Positions 29,620 through 31,853 of a stretch of 32,000 bases of DNA are shown here, one piece after another (position 1 is the stretch's first letter; each line of letters opens with the position of its first letter). The stretch spans positions 1 through 32,000 of the forward strand of contig NZ_JACVWV010000001.1 of NCBI RefSeq assembly GCF_014534705.1, written 5' to 3'. The stretch is from Wolbachia endosymbiont of Pentalonia nigronervosa. GTDB lineage: Bacteria > Pseudomonadota > Alphaproteobacteria > Rickettsiales > Anaplasmataceae. The notes under the pieces were generated by a model. That model was not told the origin of the DNA. It was given only the letters and a program-made list of their open reading frames with translations, and did no database searches. The position numbers and the translations under genes were made by a program.

Positions 29620-31853
29620 TACTTAATCTGTATTAGGCTAAAATCCGCTACCAAATGAAAAATGGAAACTACTTTAACCAATAGAGATAATCTGTTTTTT
29701 CTTAATTCACTAGAATCGCAATTAATTTTTACATTGTCCATAAATTGATTGAGAGGTGGAACAAAGCTTACAAGTTCATCAAGTGCTGCACTAAAATGGT
29801 TATTTTTTACTGCTTGCTTGATGCTTTCAAAGGAGGTCATAACGCAACTTGATAATTCAACCTCTTCACTCTCAATTAAAAACCTTTTGCTGTAACACTC
29901 TTTGTAAGTAACTTTATCTTTTTGGCTTGCTTTATGAACTATATTACTAACTCTTTTATATATGTTGAGAATTTGTACGCCTTTTTGCTCATTAAGATAG
30001 CTGTCCAACATAGCTATCTGTCTTTGTGCTGTTAATAAATCGTTAACATTATTTCTGTGTAATATTGAATCTATGATATCCCGTTTCATATTCTTATTTT
30101 TTAGGATAACTTTAAACCTTTCCAAACAGAATTTAAATACTAATTCTGAAATCTGCTTTCTATCTGGTCTGTTGTGTTTTTCAACTGGTACAGTATCTTT
30201 AGTGAGTGCCGTTCTCGAGTATAAAGATACTGATTTATCTATTAATAACTTTATTGGAATATGTAAATTGTTTTCAAGTATTAATCTAATTATACCAATA
30301 GATATTCTCCGCAAACCAAACTGATCATATGAGCTAGAGATTTTTTCTCCTGCTGCAACCAGACCAACCAAACTATCCATTTTATCAGCGAGAGATACAG
30401 CAATTGCTGAAGGGGATGTGGGACACTCTTGATCAGGTCCAACTGGTTTATAATGCTCTACTATGGATTCTACTACTTCTTGATCTTCGTGAAAATGAGC
30501 TGCATAATGCCCACCCATTATTCCTTGTAGCTCATGAAATTCTCTGACTATTGATGTTGCTAAGTCAGCTTTTGCTAAATATGCAGCACGTTCAACCTTA
30601 ATTAATGAGGCATGAGGAATCCATATGGCTATATATTTTGATAGAGCTATAATACGTTTTACTTTTTCCTGAACACTGCCAAGATAACCATGGAATGATA
30701 TTGAATCTAGTTTATTCACATAGTAATCTAAGTTATGCTTTTTGTCCTGAGATATTAAAAATTGAGCATCAGCAAGGCGCGCTTCTAATATTTTTTCATG
30801 TCCTTTAATGACATTATCATTTTTAACGTTAACAACAGTAGCAAAATATAAAATCTTTTGCCCATCGCTCAAAGCAAGATACTTCTGTTGTGTATGTACT
30901 ATACTGAGTATTACTTCCTTAGGTAGTTCGGCAGATTTTTCTTGATTTACTTTACCAAATAATACAATCGGATATTCTATCAATCCGGTTAATTCATTCA
31001 ATAAATAGTCATTTTGTTCAAGTTGTAAATTATGTTTTTTGGTAAAATCTTTAATCTGATCTAATATGAACTGCTTTCTTTTATCCTGTTGAAGAATAAC
31101 GTTATTTTTTTCTAACAATTTAAAGTAGTCTTGTGGTGTTTCTACGGTTAAAACTTGATTAGACCTCTTTCGAAACTCAATTTCTGATGGCAATTTTGTT
31201 ATCGAAGCTGAACTACGCTCCTCAAATACATCCTGCGGTGCTTCGCTTGCACTTCTCCTCTCACCATAAATCGGGTTCGAAAGAGGTCTATTGTGTGAAA
31301 GCAGGCGATGACCGTAAGTTACATTAGATGCAGTAATTCCAGCAAAAGATATAGGGATGACTTCACCGTCCAAAATACATAGAATGTTTTTAATTGGTCT
31401 TACCCATCTTTCTTTTCTTGTACCCCACCTCATGCTCTTAGGCCACGAAAAATTTTTCAGCATTTCTTCTAACTGATTGCCAAGAAATTCTTTTATGTTA
31501 AAAGCACAACTGTCTCTTTTTATAAAGTAAAAATCTTCGTCATTTATTTTGCGGATAAAGACATCCTCCATACTTTTTTGGTTTTTTCTTAAAAAACCCT
31601 CTAAAGCATCCTGTGCTGCATTAACATTTGGACCTTTAATTTCATCATTGGAGCTTTTTAGCTCTAAGATCCTTATGTCATCGATAAAAAGAGTGATACG
31701 ACGTGCTGTGATGAAAACCTCTATAGATGAAAATTTTATATTATTCTTATGAAAGGTACTGGTAATATAATTCTTAATTTGCGTTACCGCTAAATTATGC
31801 ATTCTTGATGGTATTTCTTCAGAAAGACACTCAAATAATAACTGTGATGACAT
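29619..31853 (-). CDS. glyS: Glycine--tRNA ligase beta subunit, carrying a 43-residue in-frame repeat-derived insertion.
   Basis: 744 aa. N-terminal LLFECLSEEIPSRM, TYGHR, and a C-terminal anticodon-binding region. It lies directly downstream of glyQ. Residues 189-231 are encoded by the palindromic repeat at 31161..31289. Confidence 0.93.
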   Translation of the reverse strand: MSSQLLFECLSEEIPSRMHNLAVTQIKNYITSTFHKNNIKFSSIEVFITARRITLFIDDIRILELKSSNDEIKGPNVNAAQDALEGFLRKNQKSMEDVFIRKINDEDFYFIKRDSCAFNIKEFLGNQLEEMLKNFSWPKSMRWGTRKERWVRPIKNILCILDGEVIPISFAGITASNVTYGHRLLSHNRPLSNPIYGERRSASEAPQDVFEERSSASITKLPSEIEFRKRSNQVLTVETPQDYFKLLEKNNVILQQDKRKQFILDQIKDFTKKHNLQLEQNDYLLNELTGLIEYPIVLFGKVNQEKSAELPKEVILSIVHTQQKYLALSDGQKILYFATVVNVKNDNVIKGHEKILEARLADAQFLISQDKKHNLDYYVNKLDSISFHGYLGSVQEKVKRIIALSKYIAIWIPHASLIKVERAAYLAKADLATSIVREFHELQGIMGGHYAAHFHEDQEVVESIVEHYKPVGPDQECPTSPSAIAVSLADKMDSLVGLVAAGEKISSSYDQFGLRRISIGIIRLILENNLHIPIKLLIDKSVSLYSRTALTKDTVPVEKHNRPDRKQISELVFKFCLERFKVILKNKNMKRDIIDSILHRNNVNDLLTAQRQIAMLDSYLNEQKGVQILNIYKRVSNIVHKASQKDKVTYKECYSKRFLIESEEVELSSCVMTSFESIKQAVKNNHFSAALDELVSFVPPLNQFMDNVKINCDSSELRKNRLSLLVKVVSIFHLVADFSLIQIK
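31161..31289. repeat. Palindromic MITE-like repeat, a 129-bp copy lying in frame inside glyS.
   Basis: Termini AGACCTCTTTCGAA.../...TTCGAAAGAGGTCT and the core CGCTCCTCAAATACATCCTGCGGTGCT match the intergenic copies. The boundaries coincide with codon boundaries of GlyS R189 and S231. Confidence 0.88.

Follow-up and report, generated by a model that had tools for sequence, protein, structure and literature searches.

Palindromic repeats that code for protein inside genes of the Rickettsiales have reportedly been known since 2000 for Rickettsia and since 2005 for Wolbachia; the Rickettsia palindromic element RPE-1 is said to go back to Ogata et al. in 2000 and 2002, and the Wolbachia palindromic elements (WPE) to Ogata, Suhre & Claverie in 2005. 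Here we analyse a repeat of this kind inside glyS, the gene for the beta subunit of glycine--tRNA ligase (GlyRS), in a 32,000-nucleotide stretch from the Wolbachia endosymbiont of Pentalonia nigronervosa (positions 1 to 32,000 of contig NZ_JACVWV010000001.1, assembly GCF_014534705.1), hereafter the window. We conclude that the repeat is very probably a non-autonomous, RPE-1-like element, resembling a miniature inverted-repeat transposable element (MITE), that inserted in frame into glyS of the P. nigronervosa Wolbachia lineage and is tolerated there as selfish DNA. The initial annotation of the window had already interpreted the repeat as an in-frame insertion of the RPE/WPE class, and our analysis supports that interpretation.

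Palindromic elements within Rickettsia genes are translated, and the gmk product is active with its RPE insert (PMC2229807). Additionally, an RPE-7-like insert lies in the beta subunit of Rickettsia phenylalanyl-tRNA synthetase (PheT; PMC1779305). For Wolbachia, WPE-like in-frame inserts have been described in addA, addB and priA (PMC4224334), WPE copies have been counted in genomes (PMC4898810), and the case has been made in one paper for a relationship of WPEs with RPE-4/6/7 and not with RPE-1 (PMC3767692). Whether RPEs duplicate their target site was given as unknown in a 2007 review (PMC2229807, Table 1).

The host gene (glyS coding sequence, 29619..31853, minus strand) is an intact open reading frame (ORF) of 744 uninterrupted codons, and the identical 744-residue protein is on record as RefSeq WP_223158710.1, with the Wolbachia endosymbiont of P. 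nigronervosa as its source organism. It matches the glyS equivalog model TIGR00211 with 585.6 bits (cutoff 300; E=1.5e-175), in two stretches around the insert that break at residues ~186 and ~228. The element (31161..31289, minus strand; family profile E=1e-36) is 129 nt long and codes for GlyS residues 189-231, RPLSNPIYGERRSASEAPQDVFEERSSASITKLPSEIEFRKRS, as 43 codons with zero stops, exactly as the initial annotation had placed it. Its terminal inverted repeat arms, TAGACCTCTTTCGAA (31160..31174) and TTCGAAAGAGGTCTA (31276..31290), are 15 nt each and 100% complementary, with AGACCTCTTGCAAAACC as the terminus motif, and the RNA of the element folds at -46.9 kcal/mol (z = -2.8). The GC content of the insert is 45%, against 32% in the remainder of glyS. 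The 43 encoded residues are hydrophilic, with 15 charged positions and 8 serines, and the predicted peptides across the two junctions are LLSHNRPLSNPIYGER and SNQVLTVETPQDYFK.

No terminator-like site was found in the glyS element, promoter-like matches within it were no better than in shuffled sequence, no Pfam domain matched the insert peptide, and the 32-kb window contains no Rfam family besides one tRNA. An older GenBank call of the gene, MBD0390890.1, is only 591 aa long and begins with an ATT start codon at residue 154; profile alignments are broken in two by the insert, which may have led to a wrong start site in that record.

Orthologs lack the segment. In a GlyS alignment of 80 sequences that reaches Ehrlichia and Anaplasma, residues 188-231 are gapped in 79, which gives the clean indel that the initial annotation had anticipated at residues 189-231 and leaves 79 of 80 proteins without a homologous 43-residue segment. 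With the insert set aside, the five nearest GlyS proteins, each of 700 aa, share ~95% identity with that of the window; LLSQ runs directly into NQVLTV in them, where the window has LLSH-N-(43 aa)-NQVLTV. At the DNA level, the site is empty in three relatives with 94-95% nucleotide identity to the window glyS (L001, L028 and L029; TCACAA followed by AATCAAGTT), and the homologous position is also empty in a fourth at 84% identity (L027; GCAAAA followed by AACCAAGCT). The filled site in the window is TCACAC-AAT-(129 nt)-AAT-CAAGTT. The net gain is 132 nt or 44 codons, made up of the 129-nt element and a duplicated AAT that adds a second Asn; the element does have the 43 codons first ascribed to it, and the gain to the protein, first put at 43 residues, is 44 by comparison with orthologs. 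On the minus strand, the upstream copy of the duplicated triplet (Asn188) lies at 31290..31292 and the downstream copy (Asn232) at 31158..31160.

Perfect 3-nt repeats also flank five other copies of the family: ATT/ATT at the window copy at 26755, AAT/AAT in ligA (L013), AGC/AGC in L018, and AAT/AAT in both L026 and L032. The flanks of several older copies agree at two of three positions. Empty and filled sites combined with 3-nt flanking repeats are a signature of transposition. The glyS element shows both features by which a MITE is recognized, namely terminal inverted repeats and a target-site duplication visible by comparing filled with empty sites (L001, L027, L028, L029).

To survey the family, species-representative genomes, a set that excludes the window's own genome, were searched for a 20-mer of the element. 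Apart from chance matches elsewhere, this returned 12 loci, all in genomes of Wolbachia or Wolbachia-like bacteria, and a 22-mer diagnostic of the 129-nt variant brought in five metagenome contigs. The retrieved loci were searched with a DNA profile, with all frames on both strands tested, and host genes were named by NCBIfam models or by eye from ORF translations. All 13 independent in-gene copies lie inside long ORFs in one orientation and one frame (RPL...VFEE...KLPSEIE...S), and their lengths of 120, 129 or 144 nt are all divisible by three. Their hosts are glyS (at two sites, in the window and in Wolbachia wCori), ribE, ligA, glmU, holB, murD, an hda-like gene, gpmI, gap and three hypothetical genes.

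Scored against the RPE1 domain model (NCBIfam TIGR01045, cutoff 30 bits), the first set of copies spans 21.6-29.9 bits. The upper value belongs to the ribE copy, and the wCori glyS copy reaches 28.3 bits (E=1.2e-6) as a peptide alone and 21.6 bits within the whole protein. No NCBIfam model except RPE1 matched the insert peptide of the window at E<=1. A protein profile built from the window and Wolbachia copies found 169 matches at E<=0.001 in 1.84 billion representative proteins, and ~34 of the best 150 of these are at least 150 aa long. Ten of the longer matches (345-1221 aa) were scanned with the RPE1 model; six of them exceed its cutoff, at 32.3-44.0 bits, and AddA, AddB and ankyrin-repeat proteins are among these six. 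Named sources of profile matches include Wolbachia wCori, wCfeT, Candidatus Tisiphia (Rickettsiaceae) and Candidatus Cardinium, and residues 188-237 of a Tisiphia protein (P0176) match the Wolbachia element profile from end to end (E=2.8e-10). Some small Wolbachia ORFs are already labelled 'palindromic element RPE1 domain-containing protein' by NCBI. With in-frame copies in many Wolbachia genes, and family members that match the RPE1 model, the assignment to a coding palindromic element of the RPE/WPE class is supported.

Residues 3-55 of a protein from a Candidatus Cardinium metagenome-assembled genome (MAG; P0239), a Bacteroidota endosymbiont, also resemble the element profile from end to end (E=5.9e-6). 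The Tisiphia and Cardinium matches could mean transfer of the element between co-resident endosymbionts, or contamination of MAGs. A paper on Cardinium MITEs (PMC9769881), considered as a possible link, turned out to be unrelated. In one metagenome contig (L033:~1860-3180), an hda-like N-terminus and a PstA-like membrane permease are fused in one ORF with the element between them, which would reflect either recombination at the repeat or metagenome misassembly.

The glyS copy belongs to a stop-free subfamily. Relative to the 144-nt form it carries changes of -8, +1 and -8 nt, and its central 10 codons (RRSASEAPQD) are read in another frame than in that form, the frame being regained before VFEER. 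A 129-nt variant with the same indel layout, 93% identical to the glyS copy, lies in the nuoC-mdh spacer of the closest relative (L026:4013-4141), and this spacer copy and an empty glyS site come from one JGI sample. The subfamily and its 120-nt derivatives are further found at L032:3103-3231, L033:2205-2333, L031:1613-1737, L034:2102-2221 and L030:5293-5412, with copies of 129 or 120 nt in frame within an hda-like gene, murD and one hypothetical gene. Since this layout occurs nearly identically elsewhere, the stop-free form is older than the glyS insertion and no repair after insertion was needed. Restoration of the open frame after insertion was rejected as an explanation, because independent copies share the same 129-nt layout.

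This bears on how the frame of the glyS copy had first been explained. The intergenic copy at 26755..26881 (127 nt, minus strand, ATT/ATT flanks) has stops in all three frames of the glyS-type orientation. Its DVFEER frame reads TSCKTDL*RETF*EKRRRAPQDVFEER..., with the stops TGA and TAG, and the segment before the core measures 65 nt there against 57 nt in glyS. Translation and counted lengths agree with the initial annotation on each of these points. Its suggestion that the glyS copy is open owing to the shorter segment holds for the length; the stop-free variant existed beforehand and was not opened later.

By sequence alignment, the insertion site corresponds to E. coli beta residues 193-198. 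These fall in the B1 domain (residues 1-65 and 125-215; PMC8464048), which has a pair of short beta-hairpins and touches both the alpha subunit and the acceptor stem of the tRNA (PMC8464048, PMC9908026). The E. coli structure holds only ~4 residues at this position. In the 80-sequence alignment, the columns flanking the insert are locally the most variable, with ~3 bits of entropy and a natural indel, right after the near-invariant TYGHRF motif. An AlphaFold2 model of GlyS, built from the 80 sequences as a single chain without alpha subunit or tRNA, has a mean predicted local distance difference test (pLDDT) score of 85.8 and template modelling (TM) scores of 0.73-0.84 to the solved GlyRS beta chains 7yse, 8ie2 and 7eiv. 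Residues 188-231 have pLDDT ~24 and form a coil between strands 178-180 and 234-236. The insert thus sits in a variable loop and is predicted to be disordered. Mapping onto such a model had been proposed in the initial annotation as a check for a loop, and the site is indeed variable and unstructured in the model. From this we infer surface exposure of the insert in the (alpha-beta)2 enzyme.

Insertions recur in this part of the protein. An independent 144-nt copy of the family lies in frame in the wCori glyS (CP116769.1; L003:3487-3630; AAC/AAT flanks), where it follows the equivalent of Leu161, 27 residues upstream of the window's site, and another GlyS, P0115, carries an insert of 18 unrelated residues that separates A171 from G172. 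Insertions are thus tolerated in three adjacent turns of B1. In the GlyS of a Wolbachia sp. MAG (P0067), 27 residues (PLIDKSVSLY...) are duplicated in tandem within the linker that follows the HD domain (alignment columns ~592-618); this duplication is unrelated to the element. Two cluster fragments, P0122 and P0123, span the C-terminus only and are uninformative on the insert.

Substitutions in glyS point to a gene that is kept. Codon changes specific to the window lineage are 16 synonymous and 4 non-synonymous, where a ratio of ~4:1 the opposite way is expected without selection, and one of the four, Gln187 to His (CAA to CAC), lies directly at the junction. Against L001, dN/dS is 0.146 for glyS and 0.13 for the neighbouring uvrC; glyS dS is ~0.16 to the closest sampled relatives, and the order glyQ-glyS-uvrC is maintained. 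Judged by these codon changes, glyS is still under purifying selection.

We propose that an RPE-1-like element of 129 nt with ~15-nt inverted termini would have inserted into glyS and duplicated the 3-bp AAT after the window lineage split from its closest sampled relatives, and that it was presumably moved in trans by a transposase. The reading frame would have been kept because element and duplication add up to 132 nt, a multiple of three, and kept open because the 129-nt subfamily is stop-free in the frame used. The element landed where the GlyRS beta B1 domain varies most, in a turn linking two predicted short strands, from which the hydrophilic, predicted-disordered 43 residues probably project as a loop that leaves the fold undisturbed. 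The insert is presumably translated, and GlyS has presumably retained its activity. The insert is best read as selfish DNA, neutral or slightly deleterious, rather than as a functional module, and most probably as selfish DNA tolerated in a predicted permissive loop of an essential synthetase subunit.

Several points weigh against this proposal. The glyS copy of the window falls under the RPE1 cutoff (15.6 versus 30 bits, E=0.012) and aligns with model positions 23-48 only, because the reading frame shifts over its central 10 codons relative to the 144-nt form. No parental insertion sequence or transposase with matching termini was found in the examined loci and the window, whole genomes not having been searched, and the matches there that resemble terminal inverted repeats are accounted for by small elements only. 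The lineage-specific substitution counts span time before as well as after the insertion. The suggested surface exposure comes from a single-chain model, while B1 touches the alpha subunit and the acceptor stem. Finally, neither the exact 744-aa product nor the 591-aa one is on record in any independent assembly or contig, which keeps a misassembly at the repeat formally in play.

Such a misassembly, a repeat copy misjoined into glyS, would fit a draft genome whose contig is 70.6 kb long, and the related contig L033 looks chimeric at a repeat copy. The junctions in glyS are exact, however, with a 3-nt duplication of a triplet present once in the empty site, the reading frame is preserved, and the glyS copy differs from every compared copy (best 94%). 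A junction-exact duplication around a unique, frame-preserving copy is not expected from a misjoin, and we consider an artefact very unlikely. Inactivation of glyS by the insertion, leaving a young pseudogene or a fragmented gene, could explain why the older GenBank record starts only at residue 154, but is as improbable: we rejected it on the intact ORF, the 16:4 counts and the full-length RefSeq call, to which the dN/dS and the preserved synteny add. Bacteria with the alpha2-beta2 enzyme are not known to make Gly-tRNA by any means other than GlyRS beta, which also counts against inactivation. The initial annotation had named a pseudogene as the outcome contrary to its claim, and glyS does not have the marks of one. 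The chance that the segment is instead ancestral to GlyS and was lost in other lineages is vanishingly small. Nothing beyond its presence in the window GlyS speaks for this, whereas Ehrlichia, Anaplasma and the nearest relatives are among the orthologs without it, the E. coli structure has only ~4 residues there, and the insert has the marks of a mobile repeat, namely dispersed copies in the DNA, inverted termini and a duplicated target site; the alignment and the empty DNA sites led us to reject it.

Two further readings grant the insertion and differ on what it does. The loop might have been co-opted on B1 for a new role, for instance to modulate how the acceptor stem is bound, how alpha and beta assemble, or how the enzyme interacts with a host factor. 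The contacts of B1 with the acceptor stem and alpha subunit (PMC8464048, PMC9908026), the second same-family insertion in wCori GlyS and the invariance of the VFEE and TKLPSEIE motifs in eight coding copies are consistent with this idea. Against it, only one strain has the insert and relatives at ~95% nucleotide identity do without it, the insert is predicted to be disordered, and the element family lands in unrelated proteins. The conserved peptide motifs also coincide with DNA segments conserved in non-coding copies, so that a constraint at the DNA level explains them equally well. We regard co-option as highly improbable. A bolder possibility, only slightly less doubtful, is that the B1 hairpin turns are a recurrent landing zone where the loop is retained for altered handling of tRNA(Gly) or for alpha-beta assembly, with a wider version in which the family is a horizontally transferred coding MITE. 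It builds on two independent insertions 27 residues apart in two Wolbachia lineages, and the inserted loop adjoins the H3-S7 loop that binds the tRNA acceptor stem. If true, a mobile element would have created a functional enzyme module, and in the wider version the family would move among co-resident endosymbionts (Wolbachia, Rickettsiaceae, possibly Cardinium). Tolerated selfish DNA remains our preferred reading.

Elsewhere in the window, a DNA profile of four copies recovers the family at 10400-10549 (E=4e-40), 26755-26881 (E=3e-39) and 3952-4025 (E=1.2e-9) besides glyS. The recurrence in glyS of the intergenic repeat at 10400 and 26755, which the initial annotation had noticed, is thereby upheld, with one profile matching all three. 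The 19-nt core motif occurs four times in the window against 0.03 expected, and in aligned columns the two intergenic copies match the glyS copy at 90% and 86% identity. The copy at 10400..10549 (150 nt, minus strand) has a 23-nt internal insertion, and its RPL...VFEER reading is not open. A lone segment resembling a terminal inverted repeat, TTTGAAAGAGGTCTGATG (10588-10612), lies ~40 nt downstream of it; the segment resembles the right end of the glyS copy and may be the remnant of a second copy, nested or adjacent. The degenerate half-copy (3952..4025, minus strand) occupies the spacer upstream of tRNA-Arg(TCT) (4102-4177), and further matches resembling terminal inverted repeats lie beside it at 3911 and 3951 (region 3911-4080). 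Additionally, three 49-nt direct repeats at 4304-4484, spaced 60 and 72 nt apart and 65-92% identical, fall within a long ORF on the minus strand (4284-6617) and suggest that it encodes an internally repetitive protein.

As a recent selfish insertion into an essential aminoacyl-tRNA synthetase for which ~95% identical relatives supply the empty allele, this case amounts to a datable natural experiment. The pairing of filled and empty sites is a convenient test of what a 44-residue loop costs the enzyme, and it is direct evidence for transposition and a 3-bp duplication in the RPE1-like family. There is also a consequence for annotation, as such inserts break profile alignments and glyS was shortened in the older GenBank call.

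Of the described systems, RPE-1 appears from sequence to be the closest curated family. Like RPE-1, the element is palindromic, ~130-150 bp long, with terminal inverted repeats and a long hairpin, and occurs both in spacers and in frame within conserved genes, in a single reading frame; the window has 3-4 copies in its 32 kb. Over its full ~48 residues the family peptide aligns with the RPE1 model, to which six members score 32-44 bits, and the profile of Wolbachia copies retrieves the Tisiphia protein, a comparison made at the protein level. Unlike RPE-1, the glyS element resides in Wolbachia and not in Rickettsia, is one of a 129-nt subfamily that departs from the 144-nt form in the frame of its central 10 codons, and has a demonstrable 3-bp target-site duplication.

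WPEs share the genus and the habit of lying in frame, without stops, in housekeeping genes, and AddA and AddB proteins carrying the family of the glyS element were recovered; this family may be the WPE of 2005 or a separate RPE-1-like family within Wolbachia. The RPE-7-like PheT insert is a close parallel, since it too derives from a palindromic element and lies in frame in a beta subunit that is not the catalytic one, in an aminoacyl-tRNA synthetase built as a heterotetramer, but it belongs to another family, measures 63-84 bp, and is ancient and common to all Rickettsia examined, whereas the insertion into glyS is recent and confined to one strain. Bacterial MITEs such as ERIC, Correia/NEMIS and YPAL (PMC2229807) are likewise small and non-autonomous, with inverted termini, target-site duplication, a stable RNA hairpin and occasional in-frame gene fusion; they are mostly intergenic, whereas systematic presence in a single frame within essential genes typifies the Rickettsiales elements. 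The glyS insertion gives a known class one more host gene and site and is no new kind of biology; what it adds to that class is a filled/empty pair, a demonstrable 3-bp duplication and a second independent insertion in the same domain of another strain.

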